Of a stretch of 58,606 nt of DNA, positions 1,502 through 58,316 are shown one piece after another; position 1 is the first letter of the stretch, and every line of letters begins with the position of its first letter. Source of the DNA: a virus (taxonomy: Duplodnaviria > Heunggongvirae > Uroviricota > Caudoviricetes). The notes beneath the pieces were generated by a model, which ran no database searches, had not been told where the DNA came from, and saw only the letters and a program-made list of their open reading frames with translations. Location: IMG/VR virus record IMGVR_UViG_3300031992_000010; one strand, given 5' to 3'. The position numbers and the translations under genes are program-made.

Positions 1502-1536
1502 AAAAGGTTTCCAATTAAATTTGGAAACCTTTTTTT
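1502..1536. terminator. bidirectional intrinsic terminator with TTAAAT loop
   Basis: AAAAGGTTTCCAA-TTAAAT-TTGGAAACCTTTT, between convergent genes. Confidence 0.85.
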
Positions 1537-1543
1537 ATATATT
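1515..1543 (+). promoter_or_regulatory. TTAAAT-N17-TATATT promoter-like site overlapping the terminator
   Basis: Exact match to both hexamers with a 17-nt spacer. Confidence 0.6.
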
Positions 1544-2905: not shown

Positions 2906-4150
2906 TTATATATAACTATCATATGTACCACCTTTTTGTGTAATGACATATGTATTGTTATCCTGTTTTTTATTTTGATATTCCTTATATGTACGTTTTC
3001 CTACGGTTTCAGCACTTAAATTACGCAAATCCCTTACATTCGATGCATATTTATATTCAACAAATACCCGATGATTTGATTTATTATAAAGATCAAATAT
3101 TTGTTGTATAATTTTTTCGGTAACCGAATTGCTATCACCAATAACCGAACCACTTCCAATTTTATCAGGATATGATGCGATGTTTGGTTTTGTAAGGTTT
3201 CCCAATAGCAAACATGCATCGGTATCCCCTGGAAAGTTTCCGGAGTGGAATAAAACCAATCCAAAAAGTCCTCCCGCGAGTGTAAATTGCCCGGCCCTAT
3301 TATTCAGGTCACAAACACAAGGTTTTTCCGGTTGGGAACTTTTTGTTCTTTTAATAAGTGTTAACGGACGTTTGCCGGATGGTCTAAATTGAATTTTATA
3401 TTTACCTGTTGGTATGGCGGTTTGTCCGTGAACCTTATAACTTTTAAGTTTAAATCCTGTTCCTTGAACAAATTTATTTGAAAGTGTTTTGCCATCCCAA
3501 ATAAACCCCCTATCAAGGTCCTCACACGTATAACATAATGTTTTTCCATCCAACATCAATCTTCCCAATGTATAATCCTTACCAAGAACGATACGTTCCA
3601 CCACAAGATTGACCCCATTTGAGACATCCACATTTAATGATGAATAATCCTCCATAATATTTGAAATGTCACCAACGGATATAGGGGTGGGTGTAGGTTC
3701 GGGCTGGGGCGGCATCTCCGGCATCATAGGGATTGCATCACCATAATCAACGGGGGCCAGTTCCGCGGGCTGTTCATCCGGAATAGGTAACGCCCCACCG
3801 GTTACCATGGAGGCCAATGCGGTTGCCTTATCGGTTGCCGCACCGGTAACCTTGTCAATCACTTTTTGTGTTATTTCGGCAACCTTTTGTGATATCCAAT
3901 CCTCGATCATTTTTTCCACACCGGCGATAAAATCCTGCACTGCCTGAATAACCTTCATAATGCGTGAGATTAGTTTATTGATTTTATTCATTATATTGGT
4001 TAACACGGCACCTACGGCGGTGAGTGCCTTTTCCTTCAGGTCCTTTATTTTGGCATCAAGATATGCAATGGTATTGAGGAAAGCGCCAACCTTCGCATCA
4101 TACCACGCCTTCAATTCATTATATTTATCATATGCCTCAATAATGGTCAT
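2906..4150 (-). CDS. DUF5675-like domain fused to an N-terminal coiled coil and Pro-rich linker
   Basis: C-terminal half has ER..LGKDYTLGRL, CYTCEDLDR, TAIPTGKY and LFHSGNFPGDTDACLLLG, which I recognise as DUF5675-type motifs. Confidence 0.6.
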   Translation of the reverse strand: MTIIEAYDKYNELKAWYDAKVGAFLNTIAYLDAKIKDLKEKALTAVGAVLTNIMNKINKLISRIMKVIQAVQDFIAGVEKMIEDWISQKVAEITQKVIDKVTGAATDKATALASMVTGGALPIPDEQPAELAPVDYGDAIPMMPEMPPQPEPTPTPISVGDISNIMEDYSSLNVDVSNGVNLVVERIVLGKDYTLGRLMLDGKTLCYTCEDLDRGFIWDGKTLSNKFVQGTGFKLKSYKVHGQTAIPTGKYKIQFRPSGKRPLTLIKRTKSSQPEKPCVCDLNNRAGQFTLAGGLFGLVLFHSGNFPGDTDACLLLGNLTKPNIASYPDKIGSGSVIGDSNSVTEKIIQQIFDLYNKSNHRVFVEYKYASNVRDLRNLSAETVGKRTYKEYQNKKQDNNTYVITQKGGTYDSYI

Positions 4151-4156
4151 TATCTA

Positions 4157-4393
4157 TTAGGAAAATTTAATACCGTTTTGTGTTAGTATTTCCGATGAAA
4201 TAATATTTTTTGAGAATAAACAAATACGTTTGCCATCCTTATAAACTGCATAATTGTTTTTTGGTGTAAGTTTTACCTCTATTGAATTTGGATCATCAAC
4301 ACCATAAACCTTCAACATGGCGGCAAATTGCCTGTATTGGCGTTCATCGTTGGAAATATTATTTTCCATTAGTGTATTAAATAGGTTTTTCAT
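4157..4393 (-). CDS. hypothetical protein with CTS-like leader (MKNLFNTLME-N)
   Basis: 78-aa ORF overlapping the ndk stop by 4 nt. Confidence 0.7.
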   Translation of the reverse strand: MKNLFNTLMENNISNDERQYRQFAAMLKVYGVDDPNSIEVKLTPKNNYAVYKDGKRICLFSKNIISSEILTQNGIKFS

Positions 4394-4791
4394 TTTAAAT
4401 AAATATTTTTTTCTATTATTTTTCTATTTTTTGAATCACTTGAATGCATAACATTCCTCATATCATCCTTACCATATTTTTCCCTGATTTTATCCTTGAA
4501 TGCACCCACATCAATTCCGTGGACGTTTATGCATTCAAAACCGGTTGAAGGACCTGATGTCATATAATCACAAAGATCCTTGTAGAAGTCCTCATCCTTG
4601 TGTGGAAAATAGAACTTTTCCGCCTCCTCCATATTAAGTGTTTTTGTGTTCCATTTAACCGGCATAAGACCTACGGACCGCATTTCATTCAATAATATAG
4701 GTGTAAGTTGAAGGAAACCGGGTTTGATCATTATAAACTCGGTCGATTGTTTTTTGATTCCTTCCAATATGAGGTTATGTAAATGTTTCAT
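4390..4791 (-). CDS. ndk: nucleoside diphosphate kinase
   Basis: FIMIKP, EAEKFY..HK...FYKDL.DYMTSGP, IREKYG and RNVMHSSDS (catalytic His) match NDK motifs. Confidence 0.9.
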   Translation of the reverse strand: MKHLHNLILEGIKKQSTEFIMIKPGFLQLTPILLNEMRSVGLMPVKWNTKTLNMEEAEKFYFPHKDEDFYKDLCDYMTSGPSTGFECINVHGIDVGAFKDKIREKYGKDDMRNVMHSSDSKNRKIIEKNIYLK

Positions 4792-6921: not shown

Positions 6922-7040
6922 ATAATTTTTTAATATTTTTATATATAATAATTTTGATACAAAATATATTAAAGATTGGCCGTTTGAAATGCTTATTTTT
7001 TTCACCGCCAAGCATTATTATTTATTAAAAAACTAACAAA

Positions 7041-11486: not shown

Positions 11487-11517
11487 ACAATTTTATTATT
11501 ATAAAAAATAGTTTGGT

Positions 11518-16495: not shown

Positions 16496-16527
16496 TTATT
16501 ATTATTATAAAATAAATACTATGGAAT

Positions 16528-21440: not shown

Positions 21441-21502
21441 TTAAATTTTTTCCGGATTCATTATATATTAATATGTAAGTTAAATTTAAAGGATATAGGA
21501 GG
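21441..21502 (+). promoter_or_regulatory. 62-nt promoter plus leader cassette (TTAAAT-N17-TATATT...AAAGGATATAGGAGG)
   Basis: 61 of 62 nt identical to 50852-50913. Confidence 0.85.
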
Positions 21503-21510
21503 AAATTAAA

Positions 21511-21741: not shown

Positions 21742-21768
21742 AGGGTGCCTAATTAGGTACCCTTTTTT
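21742..21768 (+). terminator. intrinsic terminator
   Basis: AGGGTGCCT-AATT-AGGTACCCT followed by a T run. Confidence 0.75.
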
Positions 21769-23389
21769 ATTTATATACAATTTCCCATTTGGTATGGCCT
21801 GAATCATATATGCGGTAATATGGCAGATTCATCATAATATCCTTTTCGGTCATATTTGACGAGGTTGCATATTGTTTAATCCGGTTCTTTTGAAATGAGG
21901 TGCGGTGGTAACGTATATGTGTTGTTTTATGTACATACCAATATGATACGGTCGAACCTCCGTTGGTGAATCCTAATTTTTTATATAGCCCGCCGTTGCT
22001 TATATCATTAGATGAAAATGATACGATTTTTTTAGGATGGTAATTTTTATTAAAATATGTCAGTAATTTTTCGGCACCGCCAACAACCTGCATATTTATT
22101 TTTGTACAAAACCGGTTTAATTCCCAACAATCATCATTCATTCCTCCTGAAACCTTCGACCGGTGGTTGAATGTCATTACACCGACAAGTTCGGTATTAA
22201 AATATAATCCCATGCGAACCTTTGTTTTTGTGCGGCCTTGAATGTGATTGGATTCAAGAAATTCCATACAGGTTGATGGGTCAATTTCCTTTATTAAACA
22301 TTGCCGCGCATATATCCGGGTTTGGTATATGCCCAATTTTGATAATGCAACCGATCGGGCTATATCCGGTGCGGTTATGATTTGATCCTCCCAAATGGTT
22401 ATTAGTTGGATTCCTGCATCCCTACATTTAATATATTTATTATAATGATATTTATTATCCTTTTTTAAATCACTATGCCAATAACATCCGTTACATTCGA
22501 ATGCAATCCCCCTATCCGGAATATAAATATCCAATTCGTAAGGTGATATGACCGACCGTATGTTGGTTTCATATTTTATATTATATTCATCCAAAATATT
22601 TTTTATAAACTTTTCAGGCCAGGTATCCATATTTCCCACGGATTTTATTGGAAGTAATTTGGTGCACGGCTCAATATTAAATTCCCGGCGTGCGAAAAAT
22701 TGGTCGTTTTCTATTATATATGTTTTCTCCTTACATTTATCACATCCACTGTGCGGACACATACATATCCAACCTCCATCCTTCGTATATCCCACAATAT
22801 TGGAATGCCCATTAATATACCTGACCTGATTGGACTTTTTTATTTTATCCTTTACATCCGGTAGGGATTGAACCCGTTCCACACCATATTTACGAATATT
22901 ATTTTTTATTTGGGTCTCCTGGACCTGTTTTGATTGTGATGGATATTCGACACCATAACGTTGTTTGTTGGTATTCCTGATTTTTTGTTTAACATCCTCC
23001 GATTGAAATGGATTTTCCACACCATACCTTTCCAACGTGGTTTGTATGGCCTTTTCCCTATTATTATATGAGGCATCACCATATTTTAACACCTTCGTAT
23101 TTATTATTTTTTGTACCCGGCCCGGATTCATATTCATACACTCCACACTACAACATTCATTGTATCCATAAACCGAATTACGAAATCCCACAGGTTTTCC
23201 ACAATAACATTTTGGTCGTTCCGTAATATCGTGGAGTAGCCAATATATACCCTCCGAAAATGTTATATCCGGAAATTTAAATAATATATAATTGTATACG
23301 TCAGGAAAATGTTTACGTATATATCCTGCGGTTCTTGCATTTGGCTTGATGCCCAAAATTACATTTTTGTATGAAGCTATATCCATCAA
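21767..23389 (-). mobile_element. free-standing Hef-like (PD-(D/E)xK/Vsr-like) homing endonuclease gene, copy 1
   Basis: CxC..CSxxC zinc motif, (K/R)YGV(E/D)N repeats, YELDIYIP...AFECNGCYWH nuclease motif and a GNAT-like C-terminus ending YRIYDSG.TKW. It lies next to the DNA polymerase gene. Confidence 0.7.
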
Positions 23390-23428: not shown

Positions 23429-23457
23429 TTAAATTTTTCGGAAAGGATTTATATATT
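23429..23457 (+). promoter_or_regulatory. TTAAAT-N17-TATATT promoter-like site for the DNA polymerase
   Basis: Exact hexamers and spacer, 25 nt upstream of the ATG. Confidence 0.75.
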
Positions 23458-26395: not shown

Positions 26396-26454
26396 TTAAA
26401 TTTTTTAATGAATCTTTATATATTAATGTGTAAGTTAAATTTAAAGGATGGAGG
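26396..26454 (+). promoter_or_regulatory. promoter plus leader cassette variant
   Basis: TTAAAT-N17-TATATT followed by AATGTGTAAGTTAAATTTAAAGGATGGAGG. Confidence 0.85.
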
Positions 26455-26462
26455 ATTAAGTT

Positions 26463-32031: not shown

Positions 32032-32188
32032 AAATGTAATTTTTATTCGTTTTAACAGGAGATTTTTGAACGGATGATGTTTTATATTATTTTATGAAGA
32101 TCTTTCCGTAGGGCTTAAATAAATGGCAAAAAATAAGGTGTTTCGGATTGACCAAAACACCTTCTTTTTTTTATTTGGAAAAAAATGA

Positions 32189-32560
32189 TTAATTTTCCGT
32201 CGGCATAACCTGTAATAATTTGTACACGGCATCACCATTTTGTGTTCCATATTGTCCCGATAGTTGATACATTTTGAAAAAATCGGCCAAGGTGGGGATT
32301 TTTGTAGCCTGTTTAAAGGAATATACGCCCCAATTTTCGGCATTTATAAATTTATCAAAAAGTTCCGGTTGACGAATCATCGAACCGGTAATAACATAAC
32401 CATCCTCGTGTTGAACCATATGGGTATCCGATACGGAACCCCATACGTTATTGTATAGGCGGCAAATTCCGTTGGAACCTGATGATTGTTCCTTAAATGT
32501 ATCCGTTTTATACGGCGATTGTGCTATGCCTTGTTTTAAAAGTTCCGTAAATCTATTCAT
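32189..32560 (-). CDS. hypothetical protein
   Basis: Last gene of the sigma-factor operon. Confidence 0.7.
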   Translation of the reverse strand: MNRFTELLKQGIAQSPYKTDTFKEQSSGSNGICRLYNNVWGSVSDTHMVQHEDGYVITGSMIRQPELFDKFINAENWGVYSFKQATKIPTLADFFKMYQLSGQYGTQNGDAVYKLLQVMPTEN

Positions 32561-32572
32561 AATAATATTTTT

Positions 32573-32824
32573 TTATTTACGTATGCGCATATATGTGGTA
32601 TATTCATCCGCCATATATGTTTCACCAACCTTCAATTTTTTAATTTCCGAAATGGGATCACCATCCCAGTCCATATCGGGATCGAAAAAGTCGGTTATGT
32701 CATCATCACTAAAGAATGACAACATATTGGTTTCAACATTAATCATTAAAAATTTTGAATCCTTATCCAGTTCCTGACCCAATTCCCAATTTGCTGAATT
32801 GATGCCTTCAAAAATATGTCTCAT
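32573..32824 (-). CDS. hypothetical protein with CTS-like leader (MRHIFE-G)
   Basis: 83-aa ORF in the operon. Confidence 0.7.
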   Translation of the reverse strand: MRHIFEGINSANWELGQELDKDSKFLMINVETNMLSFFSDDDITDFFDPDMDWDGDPISEIKKLKVGETYMADEYTTYMRIRK

Positions 32825-32833
32825 ATTAATATA

Positions 32834-33163
32834 TTATTTTTCACCAAATGATTTATTCAACACACCGATCAATTTACCCCAATCACCTTTATCGGCGGCA
32901 TCCTTATTGTCATTTAGAATACCATCGATGGTTTCCTTCATTTGTTTTTCATCCAAATCATCACCGAATACCTCCTTGAATTTATTTTCGGCATAATCAC
33001 GGAATGATTTTTCGTCCTTAATTGATTCCTCCGCCTTATTTGCCTCCTTTTCGGCGTCCTCGGCCTTATCCTCAACCTTATCAATTTTCTTTTCAAGTTC
33101 CTTTATTTTGGCATCATCCGATTCCAAAAGGGATTTTTTTAAACTTTCAACCAAATTCATCAT
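32834..33163 (-). CDS. charged helical protein with CTS-like leader (MMNLVESLKKSLLE-S), possible core/scaffold protein
   Basis: K/E/D-rich coiled coil. Confidence 0.6.
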   Translation of the reverse strand: MMNLVESLKKSLLESDDAKIKELEKKIDKVEDKAEDAEKEANKAEESIKDEKSFRDYAENKFKEVFGDDLDEKQMKETIDGILNDNKDAADKGDWGKLIGVLNKSFGEK

Positions 33164-33165
33164 CT

Positions 33166-34596
33166 TTATATAGTTTTTTTGTATTTTTGATATAATAAAG
33201 TTATTTCGGTAAATTTTTCCATAACATATTCATCCGGTTTTCTTATAAATGATTCCGTTGGATATATATTGGATAAAAATTCCTTAATTATTTTTACATT
33301 CTCCTTATAATTGGCATTCAGATATTCACCATTATTTTCGAGGAATGGATTAATCGTTGTTTCAATACCTTTTGATGCACCCTCAACCGCGCTAAATAAC
33401 ATTTCCGGATTTCTCCAACGGTTGACCTCCTCAAGCATCAAATATACATCGTCATTAAGCAATACCTCATACATTTCCTCGCTCGATTTGTACATATTGT
33501 TTGCCATTAAGGATTCACTATATACATCCAAAAGGTCGCTCAAAATATCCATTAATTCCTCATTGGATTTCATAAAAGGTATGATTTTCTTGGTAACTAT
33601 ATGTGTTACCATGGCCGGTGTCATATTAAACTCGGCGGCAATATCCTTTCCCTTTTCCTGCTTTTCCCCACCAAGTCCGAAATATTTAAGGAATACAATC
33701 ACATCACGTTTAGAAAAATGTTTACCTAACTCATCAAATAAACGGTTCCATTTTTCCTGTTGTTCGGTGGCGCTTATTTTATCGGTAACACCAAGTGATG
33801 CCTGATGGTCCTGTGCATAGTCATCATCCTTACCCATAATACCATCAAGTGATTTCGTTAAATGTGTTGTCTCACCCTTTGTGTATGCATTTCGACGATC
33901 ATTATAACTCATTCGGATTGTGCGTGAGTTATTATATATTTCGGATAGAATGGAGTAGCGGATCATATATGAGGCATATTGTTTAAATGAGGTTGTTCTT
34001 GCCTTTTCGGCGCCTTCCCTGTCCTCCTTATCCTCAACATCATTTGCCTGTACCGGTTTCTTATATGTATTTATTGCCTTTGTCAATCCCTCAAATCCGG
34101 CACTTATAAGTTCCGCCTTATCGAGGTTTTCCTTTCCAATAAATTGATTTACAATCTTATACACCAACTGACCATATTGTTTTACAACGGCCGTACGTCC
34201 ACGCTCGGAATCAAGATCCATCGTCAGGTCATCCATGGCCAATTTTCCGGCCTCCAACTCGGCACGTTCGGCCTTTGACATTTTCATTGGTAATAAACGT
34301 ATGTTTGTACCCAACGATGCAAGAATGGATTTAAGTTCCTGTAAATCCTGAATATTTAGGTTTAATTCGGCGGCCAATTGTTTTAGACGGGAATTATTTG
34401 CGGCCACAATATCATCGACCACAATGTCGCTCGTAATATTATATTTTTGTAATAAATATAATGCCTTTTGTACATCCTCCGGTAGTTTACGGGACATTTT
34501 CTTTGCATAATCCGCTATCTCGTGGGATAATAACGTAACACCATCGGTGCTCGTTCTCATTCTACCTTCGGAAATTATATTGGTGAGTTGTTTCAT
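33166..34596 (-). CDS. phage-encoded sigma-70 family (RpoD-like) sigma factor with N- and C-terminal extensions
   Basis: Region 2: LVYKIV..F...AELISAGFEGLTKAINTY...SFKQYASYMIRYSI...SRTIRM. Region 4 HTH: RDVIVFLKYFGLGG...KDIAAEFNMTPAMVTHI. Confidence 0.85.
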   Translation of the reverse strand: MKQLTNIISEGRMRTSTDGVTLLSHEIADYAKKMSRKLPEDVQKALYLLQKYNITSDIVVDDIVAANNSRLKQLAAELNLNIQDLQELKSILASLGTNIRLLPMKMSKAERAELEAGKLAMDDLTMDLDSERGRTAVVKQYGQLVYKIVNQFIGKENLDKAELISAGFEGLTKAINTYKKPVQANDVEDKEDREGAEKARTTSFKQYASYMIRYSILSEIYNNSRTIRMSYNDRRNAYTKGETTHLTKSLDGIMGKDDDYAQDHQASLGVTDKISATEQQEKWNRLFDELGKHFSKRDVIVFLKYFGLGGEKQEKGKDIAAEFNMTPAMVTHIVTKKIIPFMKSNEELMDILSDLLDVYSESLMANNMYKSSEEMYEVLLNDDVYLMLEEVNRWRNPEMLFSAVEGASKGIETTINPFLENNGEYLNANYKENVKIIKEFLSNIYPTESFIRKPDEYVMEKFTEITLLYQKYKKTI

Positions 34597-34713
34597 CTAA
34601 CGCAATAAATATTTACCTAAAAAATAAAATGTACGGAAGGAAAAATTAAGTTTTTTCCGGAATACCTTAAAAAACATCCCGAAACATTTATTTTTTTCAT
34701 AAATATTGAGGAA

Positions 34714-36106: not shown

Positions 36107-36135
36107 TTAAATTTGTCCAAAAATCTTTATATATT
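36107..36135 (+). promoter_or_regulatory. TTAAAT-N17-TATATT promoter-like site for nrdD
   Basis: Exact hexamers and spacer. Confidence 0.75.
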
Positions 36136-38361: not shown

Positions 38362-38396
38362 AAAGGTTTGGGAATTAAATTTCCCGAACCTTTTTT
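38362..38396 (+). terminator. intrinsic terminator with TTAAAT loop
   Basis: AAAGGTTTGGGAA-TTAAAT-TTCCCGAACCTTT followed by a T run. Confidence 0.85.
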
Positions 38397-38403
38397 GTAT
38401 ATT
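38375..38403 (+). promoter_or_regulatory. TTAAAT-N17-TATATT promoter-like site overlapping the terminator
   Basis: Exact hexamers and spacer. Confidence 0.7.
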
Positions 38404-38428: not shown

Positions 38429-38782
38429 ATGGATGGAATTTATGAATATTTGATTGGTGGGAAGAAAATCGGTAAAAGAAACGTTCCAGCATTTAATGAA
38501 TTGGAGGTTGGTGATATTTTTTATGTTTACCAATATAAAAAACCCGACGAATGTATTAAACGATATAAAATAAAAAAAATTTACAAGGATGTACATAGTT
38601 CAATGATTGATTTTAAGGTTGATGCGGATATACATTGGTACCTACCATTAATTGAGGCAACAAAAACATTCCATAAAAATATCGATATGCCGGATACAAG
38701 GATTTATTTCGCAACAACGGAGAATGAATTGAAAAAACATATTAAATCCCAAAATATAGAAATAAAGGATATTAATTTATAA
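38429..38782 (+). CDS. hypothetical protein, paralogue of 39480-39878
   Basis: Shared IYEYLIGG.K.G, L.VGDI.Y and Y.ATT.NEL motifs. Confidence 0.75.
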   Translation: MDGIYEYLIGGKKIGKRNVPAFNELEVGDIFYVYQYKKPDECIKRYKIKKIYKDVHSSMIDFKVDADIHWYLPLIEATKTFHKNIDMPDTRIYFATTENELKKHIKSQNIEIKDINL

Positions 38783-39471: not shown

Positions 39472-39479
39472 ATTTTATG

Positions 39480-39878
39480 TTATTTTTTTGTCAAATCACT
39501 TATTTTTGCGGTTTTAAAAAATTTCACCGGAACTATTTTTTCCAATTCATTGAAAGTTGTTGCACAATATAATTTTAATCCATCATTATCAACCATTTTA
39601 CCCGTGGATGAATGGCCACCTGCAAAATTAAAGGTATTATCATCATCACCCCCATTAAGGGCCACCGTGGTGATGGTCACAATACCATTTGTGATTTTTA
39701 TATTTTTAATGTTTAAAATCATAATTGCATTTACATCGGTTTCAGGTGCCTTATTGAAGGAGGAATCCGCATAAGCCCAATAATATACGATATCCCCAAC
39801 CCCGAGATCCTCCCATTTAGGGGTTTGTCGTATCCCTGTTTTCCTTCCACCTATTAAATATTCATATATATGTTCCAT
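39480..39878 (-). CDS. hypothetical protein, paralogue of 38429-38782
   Basis: Start moved to MEHIYEYLIGG at 39878. Confidence 0.75.
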   Translation of the reverse strand: MEHIYEYLIGGRKTGIRQTPKWEDLGVGDIVYYWAYADSSFNKAPETDVNAIMILNIKNIKITNGIVTITTVALNGGDDDNTFNFAGGHSSTGKMVDNDGLKLYCATTFNELEKIVPVKFFKTAKISDLTKK

Positions 39879-39882
39879 AATA

Positions 39883-40853: not shown

Positions 40854-41680
40854 ATGAATTATCCGCAATCATTACAATCAATAAGGACAGGCAGATCCAG
40901 TTTGGAAAAATGGCTTCAAAAAAACTATCCGGAATTTAAGTTATTTTTGGATGAAAAATATCCGGGCACCTCATATCAATGTGGGTTATATATGTTTTAT
41001 AACGGAATTGATTCCATACCATTATGTGATTGTGGAAAACCTGTTAAATTTTACGGGAACCAATATGGTTTTGCCCGTTGGTGTAGCCCCACCTGTGCCC
41101 AAACAAGTAATGAAATATTAAATAAGCACAAATCCACCTGTTTGGAACGATATGGTGTTGAATATTCATTACAAAATGATAAAATAAGAATGAAGGCAAT
41201 CCAAACAAAGGAGGAAAAATATGGTGATCGAAATTATAATAATAAACAAAAATATAAATCCACCTGTTTGGAACGATATGGTGTGGATAATCCACAAAAA
41301 TCCCAAATTATAAGGAAAAAGGTGGAAAATACCTGTTTGGAACGATATGGCGAGACCTCATTTTTGAAGACACAAACGGTAAAAAAAATAAATGATGAAA
41401 AATTTATTTTAAATAACCCATATTTTATCTCAAAGGTTGGTGATGTATATAAATTCAAATGTTCAAATCCAAACTGCAATAAATGTTCCGAAAAGGAATA
41501 TGAAACAAATTATGATCTTCATTATCAACGAATAAATGTATATAACATCGAGCCGTGCCCAAAATGTATAGGCATTGGTGAGTCGGTCCAAATAAAACGG
41601 AGGAACAAATAATGTTGGAGACCGGTTATCTAAAAATATATGATACCGGACAAAGCAAATGGGTATTTAAAAACCATTAA
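40854..41680 (+). pseudogene. Hef-like endonuclease copy 2, internally deleted
   Basis: The N-terminal zinc and YGV repeats are intact (ORF ends at 41612). The family C-terminus (TEEQIMLETGYLKIYDTGQSKW) lies in another frame at 41582-41680. Nuclease and GNAT-like domains are absent. Confidence 0.8.
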
Positions 41681-44757: not shown

Positions 44758-44962
44758 GGCGTGGTTGGTTAAAAACTTTCATTTACAGCCGTCGGAAATT
44801 GATAGGATGGATATGTGGGAATGGAATTATTTTATTGACGACATAAATGAAATGGTTAAACGTGAGGAGGAGCAACACAAGAAGGAGGAGGCAAAATACA
44901 AATCATCCTTCAAAATGCCAAAATCACCGACCATACCGAAGGTATCAGGTATAAAATATTAG
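44699..44962 (+). CDS. baseplate hub assembly catalyst (T4 gp51-like)
   Basis: KNFHLQPSEIDRMDMWEWNYFI resembles the gp51 motif SEIENM.PWE. The start is uncertain. Confidence 0.5.
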   Translation: MDLSHYFQWKLDIRSLVRSKAWLVKNFHLQPSEIDRMDMWEWNYFIDDINEMVKREEEQHKKEEAKYKSSFKMPKSPTIPKVSGIKY

Positions 44963-44970
44963 AATGAAAT

Positions 44971-47077: not shown

Positions 47078-47124
47078 ATTAAACTTTGACCATAAATACA
47101 TTATTTTTTAAATAAAAAATCGAA

Positions 47125-48973: not shown

Positions 48974-49008
48974 ATACCCGGGAATTAAATTTTCCGGGTA
49001 TTTTTTTT
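48974..49008 (+). terminator. intrinsic terminator with TTAAAT loop
   Basis: ATACCCGGGAA-TTAAAT-TTTCCGGGTAT followed by a T run. Confidence 0.85.
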
Positions 49009-49013
49009 ATTTT
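48985..49013 (+). promoter_or_regulatory. degenerate promoter-like site TTAAAT-N17-TATTTT
   Basis: One mismatch in the -10 element; upstream of endonuclease copy 3. Confidence 0.45.
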
Positions 49014-49035
49014 AATTATTGAAATAATATTGGAA

Positions 49036-50709
49036 ATGGACATAACATATTTATTGCAACAACCAAGGACAAGATGTAAGGAGGTTCATATAAGCAAATG
49101 GTTCCCACAGGATTACAACGAAATACTTAAACAACCCGGTACAAAATTTACGGAGAAATTATACCAATATATGTATAATAATCCGGAACATATATGTCCT
49201 GTATGTGGTAAACAAACCCCATTTCAAAATTTTATTTCCGGTTATTCCAAATATTGTAGTGTTAAATGTAGTGCCAACGATGAGGAATGTACAAAATTAA
49301 AAAAGGAAACCATATTGGAAAAATATGGTGTTGACAATATATCCAAATTGGAATCCATCAAACAGGTAAAAAAGGATATAATGAATGAACGGTATGGCGG
49401 CTTTTACAATAACAGGGATAAGGCAAGGAAAACAATGTTGGAAAAATATGGTGTTGACAATATATCCAAATTGGAATCCATCAAACAGGTAAAAAAGGAT
49501 ATAATGAATGAACGGTATGGCGGCTTTTATAACAATAGGGATAAGGCAACGAAAACAATGCTGGAAAAATATGGTATAAAAAGCACGTTGGCCTTGCCGG
49601 AGGTTAGACAAAAGGCATTGGAAACCAAAAGAAAACGGTTTCTTGACATAAATGATGATATAATTGATTATGATGGTGATTTGTGGATAATGAAATGTCC
49701 ACACCCGGAATGTCAAAAATGTAAGGAAAAAACATTTAAAACACCACAAGGTATATATCACGATAGAAAACGTGACGGGTATGAATTATGTACAAATATA
49801 TTACCAATACAGGATATCCGGGTATCAAATACATCGATCGAAATTTTTGTTAAACAAATTTTGGATGAATATGGTATTAAATATGAGGAAAATGTAAGAA
49901 ATATAATTCCACCAAAGGAGTTGGATATTTATATTCCCGATATGCATATTGCGTTTGAATGTAACGGGTGTTATTGGCATAGTGATTTTAGGGATCACCG
50001 GCCAAAACGTCATTATGAAAAATATAAATTATGCCGGGATAAAGGGATTCAATTAATTACAATTTGGGAGGATTGGACCTATAATAAATCGGATATTTTA
50101 AAATCCATTATAAAAACAAAATTGGGTTTAATTGAAAATAAAATTTACGCAAGGAAATGTGAATTGGTGGATATATCAAACCAAAAAACATTGGTAAATA
50201 ATTTCCTTGATGTAAACCATATACAAGGCCATACCGTTTTTGAAAAATGTATTGGTGCCTATTATTGTGGTGAGTTGGCCGCCGTGATGACCTTTGGACA
50301 TAAACGGGGATGTCGTGGGGGTGCCGGTAAGGTATCAAATGAATGGGAATTAAGTAGGTTTTGTACAAAAATGGATGTGATTATTCCCGGCATTGCAAGC
50401 AGGTTATTGAAAAAATTCGAATATGAATTTAAACCGGAAATAATATATTCATTTTCATCCAACGATATTAGTTCCGGTAATTTATATAAAATACTTGGAT
50501 TTGAGGAGGAACAAACAACGATTCCATATTGGTACATTGAACCCAAAACATTAAAACGTTACCATAGAACGGCATTTACAAAAAGGGAGATGATACGGAA
50601 ACAAATGGCATCCGACTCGGATAATTTTACGGAATCCGAAATAATGAAAAAATATCATTTTTATAAGATTTATGATTCCGGAATGACCAGGTGGGAAAAA
50701 CATCCTTGA
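49036..50709 (+). mobile_element. free-standing Hef-like homing endonuclease gene, copy 3
   Basis: Same architecture as copy 1 (KELDIYIP..AFECNGCYWH and YKIYDSG.TRW); downstream of the portal. Confidence 0.7.
49317..49563 (+). repeat. 123-nt near-perfect tandem duplication (41 aa)
   Basis: EKYGVDNISKLESIKQVKKDIMNERYGGFYNNRDKA occurs twice, starting at 49318 and 49441. Confidence 0.95.
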
Positions 50710-50851: not shown

Positions 50852-50913
50852 TTAAATTTTTTCCGGATTCTTTATATATTAATATGTAAGTTAAATTTAA
50901 AGGATATAGGAGG
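50852..50913 (+). promoter_or_regulatory. 62-nt promoter plus leader cassette
   Basis: 61 of 62 nt identical to 21441-21502. Confidence 0.85.
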
Positions 50914-50921
50914 ACAAGGAT

Positions 50922-53578: not shown

Positions 53579-54076
53579 TTATTTTCCTAAATAACCTTGT
53601 GATTTCCAACCTGTTATTATTTGTTTTAATGTGGCCGTTGCGTAATGTCGGCGATAAAATGATAGACGTTTGCCATATTGATCGTATAGTCTATCCAATT
53701 CGGATTTTTTAATGGTTGCCGAATATACAAATAATTCATATTTTGGGGGCTCCCCTATGGAACCGGCATATGAGTATTTGAGTGATACCTTACCCAAATC
53801 CTTCCATTTTTGCTTACCTATAATTTTCTCAATATCCTTAATCGATCTCCATTCCTGACCATCATTAAAGCGTATACCTCCATTGGCACACATATAACCC
53901 TTATCGTCCTCGGGGGACCAAATAAGACATGCCCTGTTTCTTCCGGTGGTAAGGTCAAGGTTACTATCGATATAATCATTTGTTTCCAATGCAATTACCT
54001 TTACCTCATCATTATTGACCATTGGCCGGGTTAGGCCTCCAAGTGCCTCCATTATTTTATTTTTGAGTGTTTCCAT
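53579..54076 (-). CDS. hypothetical protein with CTS-like leader (METLKNKIME-A)
   Basis: 165-aa ORF downstream of a minus-strand promoter. Confidence 0.75.
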   Translation of the reverse strand: METLKNKIMEALGGLTRPMVNNDEVKVIALETNDYIDSNLDLTTGRNRACLIWSPEDDKGYMCANGGIRFNDGQEWRSIKDIEKIIGKQKWKDLGKVSLKYSYAGSIGEPPKYELFVYSATIKKSELDRLYDQYGKRLSFYRRHYATATLKQIITGWKSQGYLGK

Positions 54077-54122: not shown

Positions 54123-54151
54123 AATATATAGGGAAATACCAAAAAATTTAA
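54123..54151 (-). promoter_or_regulatory. TTAAAT-N17-TATATT promoter-like site on the minus strand
   Basis: The plus strand reads AATATA-N17-ATTTAA. Confidence 0.7.
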
Positions 54152-57505: not shown

Positions 57506-57629
57506 TTTATAATATTTTTTTTAATATAAAAATAAATGAAGTGCCATACAAAATTAAATTTTACCATATATTAGGAGAAACAATTAAAAAAAATAATATC
57601 CGGACTTATTTTTTAGAAAAATATTCCCT

Positions 57630-58245: not shown

Positions 58246-58278
58246 AAGGTCCATAATTAAATTTATGGACCTTTTTTT
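58246..58278 (+). terminator. intrinsic terminator with TTAAAT loop
   Basis: AAGGTCCATAA-TTAAAT-TTATGGACCTT followed by a T run. Confidence 0.85.
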
Positions 58279-58312
58279 ATATATTAATATGTAAGTTAAA
58301 TTTAAAGGATGG
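58257..58312 (+). promoter_or_regulatory. promoter plus leader cassette overlapping the terminator
   Basis: TTAAAT-N17-TATATT followed by AATATGTAAGTTAAATTTAAAGGATGG. Confidence 0.85.
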
Positions 58313-58316
58313 AAAT

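Follow-up and report, generated by a model that had tools for sequence, protein, structure and literature searches.

A sigma factor that may travel inside the phage head is the subject of this analysis. It is encoded at 33166..34596 on the minus strand of a 58,606-nucleotide stretch of Caudoviricetes DNA (IMG/VR record IMGVR_UViG_3300031992_000010), the whole of which is called the window below. The gene is the first of a four-gene minus-strand operon and specifies 476 amino acids plus a stop codon; its product, the long sigma, begins with a 10-residue leader resembling the capsid-targeting sequence (CTS) of phage T4. Together with two classes of promoter sequence and the kinds of genes that lie downstream of them, these features can be read as a chain in which a packaged long sigma would turn on early genes, including one for a short sigma, and these would in turn lead to the late genes and to new long sigma. 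We put the whole chain forward tentatively, as a possible reading of the sequence.

The long sigma and its leader

The sigma identity of the protein is well supported. PHROG 351 (RNA polymerase sigma factor) matches residues 129-336 with E 2e-18, and the profile of a 27-homolog alignment, searched against the Protein Data Bank (PDB), reached RpoS/SigA chains at E 1.8e-9 over positions 130-224, with the region 2.3-2.4 segment 'YA..IR..I....RTI' aligned between them. General models scored lower, TIGR02937 giving 41.1 bits (marginally below its cut-off of 42.9) and Pfam Sigma70_r2 20.5 bits (below its cut-off of 24), and phmmer of the single sequence against the PDB gave no match. The structure was modelled with AlphaFold2 on the family alignment (mean predicted local distance difference test, pLDDT, 72), and the best Foldseek matches of the model were all sigmaA chains in RNA polymerase (RNAP) holoenzymes. 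Using VIA-align, residues 119-223 superposed on sigma1.2-2 of RpoS (Z 12.9, root-mean-square deviation 1.7 A, 86 aligned residues, 26% identity), the sigma2 domain on an E. coli sigma70 fragment (Z 11.8), and residues 274-354 on sigma4 domains (Z 8.1-8.9, about 8.8).

Working from the N terminus, with all coordinates on the minus strand, the leader MKQLTNIISE occupies codons 1-10 (34567..34596) and is followed by a helical extension, residues 11-118 (34243..34566), that is conserved across the family and has no assigned known fold. Sigma region 1.2 and domain sigma2, residues 119-225 (33922..34242), form the part structurally matched to RpoS and sigma70. Next come a linker of low model confidence, residues 226-273 (33778..33921), and domain sigma4 with its helix-turn-helix, residues 274-354 (33535..33777), identified by the structure match, the family profile and TIGR02937, which like PHROG 351 extends to residue 336. 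A family-specific helical domain, residues 355-476 (33169..33534), starts at a YSES motif and completes the protein. Fold-search matches were concentrated on residues 119-354, and essentially none were obtained for the N-terminal domain (residues 20-118). Model pLDDT falls below 50 at residues 224-230 and 245-272; because only this low-confidence linker separates sigma2 from sigma4, no sigma3 domain is predicted, and the protein is thus not a primary (group 1) sigma. Regions 1.1 and 3, which mark that group, were not found in the model. It is a sigma-70-family protein, RpoD-like in region 2, and its proposed function is binding to core RNAP and promoter-specific initiation. The initial annotation, made from the letters alone, had described a sigma with regions 2 and 4 and with about 110 extra N-terminal and about 115 extra C-terminal residues; PHROG 351, the family profile, Foldseek and VIA-align all agree with the former, and the extra residues are 1-118 and 355-476.

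A word-indexed search yielded 66 homologs, nearly all of 453-505 amino acids and 33-99% identical over their full length; the remaining, shorter ones are probably partial. The leader and both extensions are kept across more than 60 full-length metagenomic homologs, from which the 27-sequence alignment covers the range of 34-80% identity. The family is widespread, its metagenomic members falling into 113 clusters at 50% identity that are for the most part of gut and rumen origin, and tblastn of the long sigma against 50,697 GenBank phage records at E 1e-5 gave no match. Folded alone, the C-terminal domain is predicted confidently (pLDDT 88, predicted TM-score 0.72), but it has no convincing known relative, the best match among PDB representatives (Z 6.3) involving only helical hairpins, all matches among AlphaFold DB clusters having E > 1, and the ESM Atlas giving no convincing structural relative. 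A profile of this domain, searched against 1.84 billion representatives, found 113 clusters in which it lies at the C-terminal end of sigma proteins of 455-500 amino acids, the only exceptions being fragments and two long repetitive proteins. The domain is therefore an integral, family-specific part of the sigma; the same search gave no lead to its function.

The YSES motif lies, as originally described, at the start of this domain (Y359-S360-E361-S362), but the suggestion that it is a second cleavage site fared poorly. Glu361 is replaced by Ile in three of the 27 aligned homologs, the P3 residue is Tyr rather than Ile or Leu, and the site falls inside a confidently predicted helix. Cleavage there is unlikely, although C-terminal processing of T4 Alt (PMC9026906) keeps it thinkable.

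The T4 CTS is MKTYQEFIAE (PMC8442874). Its 10 residues are sufficient: positions 4 and 7 are the main determinants of targeting, positions 8 and 10 govern processing, and an Asp at position 10 prevents processing while targeting is retained (PMC9026906). The T4 protease gp21 and related giant-phage proteases cleave C-terminal to Glu, and the T4 enzyme acts inside proheads (PMC5694885). MKQLTNIISE shares M1, K2, I8 and E10 with the T4 sequence and has hydrophobic residues at positions 4 and 7, and thus resembles it at each of the functionally mapped positions 4, 7, 8 and 10; the long sigma accordingly has a putative N-terminal propeptide of the kind, about 10-20 residues long with targeting residues 4 and 7, that characterises T4-type internal proteins. 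The leader contains the motif I-S-E, and a Peptidase_S77 (gp21-type) domain is present above the Pfam cut-off in all four related complete genomes. The major capsid proteins of the relatives carry I-I-x-E at residues 13-16. The leader probably is a signal for capsid targeting and cleavage.

Conservation of the leader extends well beyond one protein. Met1 and Glu10 are invariant in the 27-homolog alignment, and [IL]-x-E occurs near residues 9-15 in every full-length homolog, even where the leader has insertions. A strict pattern (M, [KREMN], x, [LFIV], xxx, [ILMFV], x, E) is found at eight of the 53 N termini in the window, as against 0.16% of internal positions (P about 3e-14), and at only one of 452 internal Met residues. 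The CTS-like leader reported for the sigma is therefore real, N-terminally enriched and conserved. With looser variants, about 15 of the 53 called open reading frames (ORFs) in the window bear it, 14 of them on the minus strand; these are otherwise unrelated to one another, many are small ORFans, and PHROG and Pfam scans of the small ones gave almost no matches. The DNA upstream of the leader genes is not alike, so conservation of the leader is at the protein level.

One recognisable leader protein is nucleoside diphosphate kinase (NDK), encoded at 4390-4791 on the minus strand, which starts MKHLHNLILE (Pfam NDK, E 1e-16). Its ortholog at 188909-189334 of G002, a complete 197.5-kb genome of a relative whose sigma is only about 35% identical, also has a leader. 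Relatives use their own leader dialect: 17 ORFs of G002 were found by pattern, of which about 15 are clearly of an MK[SN]L type, and nine consecutive MKSL-type genes stand just upstream of a 527-amino acid ORF and the prohead protease gene. Neither the short sigmas (that of the window phage, of 305 amino acids, and those of relatives) nor a third kind of sigma-like ORF has the leader; among the sigmas of this lineage, only the long one bears it. A different type of N-terminal leader was noted in the window ORF at 38429-38782 on the plus strand, which starts MDGIYEYLIGGKK, and the phage may have two tag systems.

Early-type and late-type promoter sequences

The initial annotation had listed ten sites of the form TTAAAT-N17-TAT(A/T)TT in the window. 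The sites are real, as a search with this pattern gave ten exact matches where 0.51 were expected, and ten were reached in none of 100 shuffles; the motif itself had been drawn too short, its fuller form being TTAAATTT, about 13 nt, and TATATATT. Scored with a weight matrix, the ten sites exceed 31, the next best sequence reaches at most 16.7, and shuffled sequences at most 14.4. Nine of the ten are on the plus strand, and the genes downstream include those for DNA polymerase, ribonucleotide reductase and a homing endonuclease as well as small ORFs. The upstream box is an invariant 8-mer that is unlike TTGACA and also unlike the TTTG / TAnnTTTG signals of Bacteroidota primary sigma factors.

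In base-pair order, the sites on the plus strand are at 1515..1543, where a strong hairpin has the upstream box as its loop; 21441..21469; 23429..23457, ending about 25 nt before the gene for DNA polymerase B; 26396..26424; 36107..36135, before the anaerobic ribonucleotide reductase gene; 38375..38403, again with the upstream box as a hairpin loop; 48985..49013, with the same arrangement and preceding a homing endonuclease gene; 50852..50880; and 58257..58285, likewise with its box in a hairpin loop. The sole minus-strand site, 54123..54151, precedes the leader-bearing gene at 53579-54076. Four of the ten are thus also terminator hairpins of 11-13 bp (-15 to -19 kcal/mol, z -4 to -6), in which the six-nucleotide loop UUAAAU is the upstream box and a U-run follows. 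Hairpin-less sites, such as those before the DNA polymerase and ribonucleotide reductase genes, keep the same box, which is therefore a sequence signal and not merely a loop. After four sites (21441..21469, 26396..26424, 50852..50880 and 58257..58285) there is a common, nearly identical 45-nt 5' untranslated region (21470-21510, 26425-26462, 50881-50921 and 58286-58316, all plus strand) with a strong AGGAGG-like ribosome-binding site, in a genome that otherwise lacks Shine-Dalgarno sequences.

Promoter-early stem-loop (PeSL) elements of T4-type phages combine a terminator and an early promoter (PMC2839356, PMC4122927), and four of the ten sites here are of this kind, a stem-loop terminator being fused to a repeated early promoter; as in PeSLs, what had been called -35 hexamers double at these four as terminator loops. 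The likeness lies in compact terminator and early-promoter composites repeated through the genome; the differences are that here the upstream promoter box is formed by the loop of the terminator and that the boxes are unlike the host consensus. About 20 copies of a variant, CAyTAAAgATTT, spacer, TATATAyAC, occur in G002, where they precede genes for DNA ligase, SSB, SbcC, a cytidyltransferase-like protein and DNA polymerase. A k-mer enrichment of upstream regions in the window returned A-rich words only.

A second, single-box sequence precedes the structural genes. The 69 occurrences of TTATTAT[TA] in G002 include 32 within 60 nt upstream of a same-strand ORF start (4.5% expected), among them the starts of the genes for sheath, major capsid protein, portal, prohead protease, tail fibre, head closure and several proteins of about 1,000 amino acids; like the late promoters of T4, it lacks a conserved companion box upstream in that genome. 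For TTATT[AT]T[TA] in the window, the corresponding count is 21 of 114 (2.7% expected), mostly at -22 to -35, and the genes include three for tail fibres and those for portal and sheath; boxes upstream of structural genes are found, for example, at 7015-7022, 11493-11503, 16496-16509, 47101-47108 and 57528-57535. We regard TTATT[AT]T[TA] as a candidate late promoter of this phage lineage, distinct from the T4 consensus TATAAATA.

The long sigma gene has such a box, TTATTTTT, at 34620..34627 on the minus strand, starting 31 nt upstream of its ATG. Nine distinct long-sigma loci were examined, and seven, that of the window among them, have a box at -29 to -37; in both sequence and position the box corresponds to those before portal, sheath and tail-fibre genes. 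Sharing this box with the structural genes, the long sigma gene may be expressed late, as packaging of its product would require.

Two other readings of the region upstream of the long sigma gene were considered and set aside. A one-mismatch copy of the early motif at 34621-34649 might be taken for a weak early promoter, but its weight-matrix score is low and its downstream half is the late-type box common to sheath and portal. A perfect T4 late consensus, TATAAATA, was seen upstream of the sigma gene only in relatives L001 and L011 and is not a general signal.

Each related genome encodes two further sigma-like genes, one for a short sigma of 211-223 amino acids and one for a third ORF of about 400 amino acids, the G002 copy of which reaches the Pfam Sigma70_r2 cut-off. 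The short sigma gene of G002 lies behind an early-type motif, and early-like boxes were recognised by eye upstream of the short sigma genes in two other relatives (G001 and G003) and of the third ORFs. In the window phage, the short sigma lies outside the window, on a near-identical contig (L041) that extends 8.9 kb beyond the window start; there, at 3851-4768 (about 5.1-6.0 kb before the window start), is the gene for the 305-amino acid protein, which lacks the C-terminal domain as well as the leader. It is the second gene after one for a 1,092-amino acid helicase-like protein that is headed by a TTAAAT-N17-TATATT site, and the two would form an operon transcribed from this early-type promoter. 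The lineage thus has three sigma-like genes and two classes of promoter sequence.

The proposed cascade and its alternatives

From this arrangement, we infer packaging, cleavage and ejection of the long sigma and the assignment of sigmas to promoter classes. The long sigma would be made late, with the structural proteins, as a precursor that its 10-residue leader would dock to the prohead core in the manner of the T4 CTS. A T4-type prohead protease would then remove the leader by cutting after Glu10, and the mature sigma would stay in the filled head and be ejected with the DNA; if the leader is indeed a targeting and cleavage signal, retention in the head and ejection are very likely. In the next cell, the mature long sigma would join host core RNAP and direct it to the two-box early promoters, which is the probable assignment once packaging and ejection are granted. 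These promoters would drive the replication genes and the short leaderless sigma, perhaps also the third sigma-like protein, and one of these two would recognise the single-box late promoters, among them the one before the long sigma gene, so that the loop would be closed. In its fullest form, the proposal is of a first capsid-internal sigma in a T4-like jumbo phage of Bacteroidota, in which a three-sigma cascade, acting on host core polymerase from time zero, replaces both dependence on the host sigma and a virion RNAP; that we consider possible but doubtful.

Several observations weigh against this cascade. The leader is present on NDK, an odd candidate for capsid cargo, and in G002 also on an AAA ATPase and a MATCAP-like peptidase; the share of window ORFs that bear a leader, more than a quarter, is large for capsid cargo, and one leader gene, 53579-54076, has an early-type site. 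The prohead protease gene is found only in relatives and not in the 58.6-kb window. The early motif is linked to the long sigma by logic only, as against the host sigma or either of the other two sigma-like proteins, and the late box, a short AT-rich word, could instead be a translation signal. That the host belongs to the Bacteroidota is no more than likely. Finally, a sigma that is made late could simply act late within the same infection.

The last point leads to the alternative that survives best, which we judge unlikely but far from negligible: the long sigma is not packaged at all, and serves a very-late set of genes or transcription once the host sigma has been disabled, its leader being a tag for timed proteolysis or for an intracellular complex, or else a selected translation-start context. 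The late-type box upstream of the gene suits this reading, and the presence of the leader on more than a quarter of window ORFs and on housekeeping-type enzymes such as NDK, for which a capsid role is not obvious, favours it; Bacillus pro-sigmaK is a precedent, and the SpoIVFB:pro-sigmaK complex was among the structural matches. Against this reading stand conservation at the protein level, at the same positions as in the T4 CTS, the upstream DNA not being conserved, and the retention of [IL]-x-E across indels in more than 60 homologs. The sole known Glu-cutting protease of the lineage is the prohead protease, whose T4 counterpart acts inside proheads (PMC5694885), and clusters of leader genes adjoin the protease gene.

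It is also conceivable, though improbable, that the sigma is packaged and injected without being the reader of the TTAAATTT/TATATATT promoters. It would then serve host takeover, for instance by competing with the host sigma for core polymerase or by reading a limited immediate-early set in another part of the genome of roughly 210 kb, and the abundant two-box motif would have the short sigma or the third sigma-like protein as its reader. The leader and the late-class evidence bear on this reading exactly as on the cascade, three sigma-like genes per genome leave the assignment of classes free, and the N- and C-terminal domains, being without known function, could have such a role. However, the genes for the short and third sigmas themselves lie behind early-type motifs in several genomes, so they are not the first readers of that class unless another promoter feeds them.

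Least probable, and very much so in our judgement, is that host holoenzyme reads the two-box sites in the style of T4 early transcription, leaving only middle and late genes to the phage sigmas and making the leader of the long sigma irrelevant to early transcription: hexamers 17 nt apart with a TATATT-like downstream box do have an ordinary sigma-70 look, and T4 PeSLs of the same terminator and early-promoter layout are read by host sigma-70 (PMC4122927), but the invariant 8-mer resembles neither TTGACA nor TTTG / TAnnTTTG, the lack of Shine-Dalgarno sequences and the Bacteroidota-infecting relatives argue for a Bacteroidota host, and the motif is kept in a divergent relative with its own upstream-box variant.

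The phage, its host and comparison with known systems

The window belongs to the genome of a myovirus distantly similar to T4. Its portal matches those of T4-type phages, with the nearest records coming from uncultured phages of 460-735 kb, Tenacibaculum phage PTm1, Sphingomonas phage PAU and the Prevotella Lak megaphages, and it also encodes a large terminase, tail sheath, family B DNA polymerase, anaerobic ribonucleotide reductase and SbcD. Contigs with an identical sigma come from sheep-rumen metagenomes, and one of them is 210 kb long.

Shine-Dalgarno-like cores are not enriched before starts, either in the window (13 of 53, as against 18% at random positions) or in G002 (nine of 178, as against 14%), and the lack of such sequences is reported for Bacteroidota (PMC6847099, PMC3155529). 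Judged by the portal, the closest cultured relatives have Tenacibaculum and Prevotella as hosts, and Mfa-like and DUF285 genes are present on the contig of one relative. A Bacteroidota host is likely, given these relatives and the weak or absent use of Shine-Dalgarno sequences. TAnnTTTG, the -7 motif of Bacteroidota, shows no enrichment in the window (92 occurrences, 79 expected), and a Bacteroidota primary sigma is not expected to read either the two-box or the late-type sequences.

Downstream of the long sigma gene, the minus-strand operon continues with a second gene at 32834..33163 (109 amino acids, leader-like N terminus MMNLVESL...), a third at 32573..32824 (83 amino acids, short leader-like N terminus MRHIFEG) and a fourth at 32189..32560 (123 amino acids, MNRFTELLKQG), homologs of which lie downstream of the sigma gene in relatives. 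A hairpin between an A-run and a T-run at 32135..32163 was read from the sequence and is likely a bidirectional terminator closing both this operon and the convergent plus-strand genes.

Elsewhere in the window, two full-length paralogous HNH homing endonucleases are encoded at 21767-23389 (minus strand) and 49030-50709 (plus strand), with a shorter relative at 40854-41612 (plus strand); these three genes adjoin those for DNA polymerase, portal and terminase. In G002, the ribonucleotide reductase and large terminase matches are each split over two ORFs, which suggests inserted mobile elements there. The 411 nt at 39472-39882, between two minus-strand genes, contain no convincing ORF and are overlapped on the plus strand only by ORFs of 49 and 74 amino acids with TTG starts; this stretch may represent an overlooked gene, a pseudogene or an RNA. 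A 213-nt gap at 44758-44970, after a 370-amino acid gene, looks coding, being GAGGAG-rich and without AT-rich signals, and may be a frameshifted or unannotated extension.

Precedents exist for the separate elements: group 2 jumbo phages encode sigma factors, internal proteins with a CTS tag and PeSL cassettes are known, and some phages deliver transcription enzymes in the virion. Jumbo phages with a gp23-type capsid and no RNAP form 'group 2' of Iyer et al. (2021, PMC7824862), with minimal and RpoD-like sigma factors, and a phage sigma is therefore expected here, but the leader and the extra domains are not. The likeness to group 2, which includes the Lak and PTm1 phages of Bacteroidota, lies in a T4-like jumbo myovirus that has a gp23-type capsid and no RNAP of its own and encodes both fuller and minimal sigmas; what distinguishes the long-sigma family is its leader, N-terminal domain and family-specific C-terminal domain. 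Literature searches found no proposal of a virion route for group 2-type sigmas and no CTS-type leader on a sigma with a gene layout implying virion delivery.

To our knowledge, phages solve the problem of the first transcript in only two ways, by promoters for host holoenzyme or by injecting a complete RNAP. If the cascade proposed here is correct, an injected sigma would be a third and cheaper solution, and would help to explain how T4-like phages spread to Bacteroidota, in which the primary sigma recognises unusual promoters. The leader system would in addition mark out many unexplored candidates for ejected host-takeover proteins, and foreign proteins could be loaded into such phages with the leader as a practical tag, a use to which the T4 CTS is already put.

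The leader has in common with the CTS of T4 internal proteins and Alt its length of 10 residues, MK start, hydrophobic residues at positions 4 and 7-8, and Glu10; in both, the tag is shared by otherwise unrelated proteins, and a T4-type portal and a gp21-family protease are encoded in the lineage. In a relative, the protease gene is adjoined by small genes with the leader, as it is in T4 by genes 67 and 68. The cargo differs, being a sigma, NDK, an ATPase and a peptidase-like protein here and small basic proteins or an ADP-ribosyltransferase in T4; there are also far more leader genes here than in T4, and packaging and cleavage of their products are putative. Bacillus pro-sigmaE and pro-sigmaK similarly have an N-terminal pro-sequence removed by a dedicated protease, as is proposed for the long sigma, but they differ in the class of protease, the cellular setting and the purpose, and the pro-sequence here is common to many proteins that are not sigmas. 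The virion RNAPs of N4, of phiKZ-like phages and AR9, and gp66 of crAss-like phages embody the same strategy, as in each case, including the one proposed here, a packaged and injected component of transcription would free early transcription from the promoter specificity of the host. Those phages inject a whole polymerase, whereas the phage described here would inject the specificity subunit only and would still need the host core enzyme.

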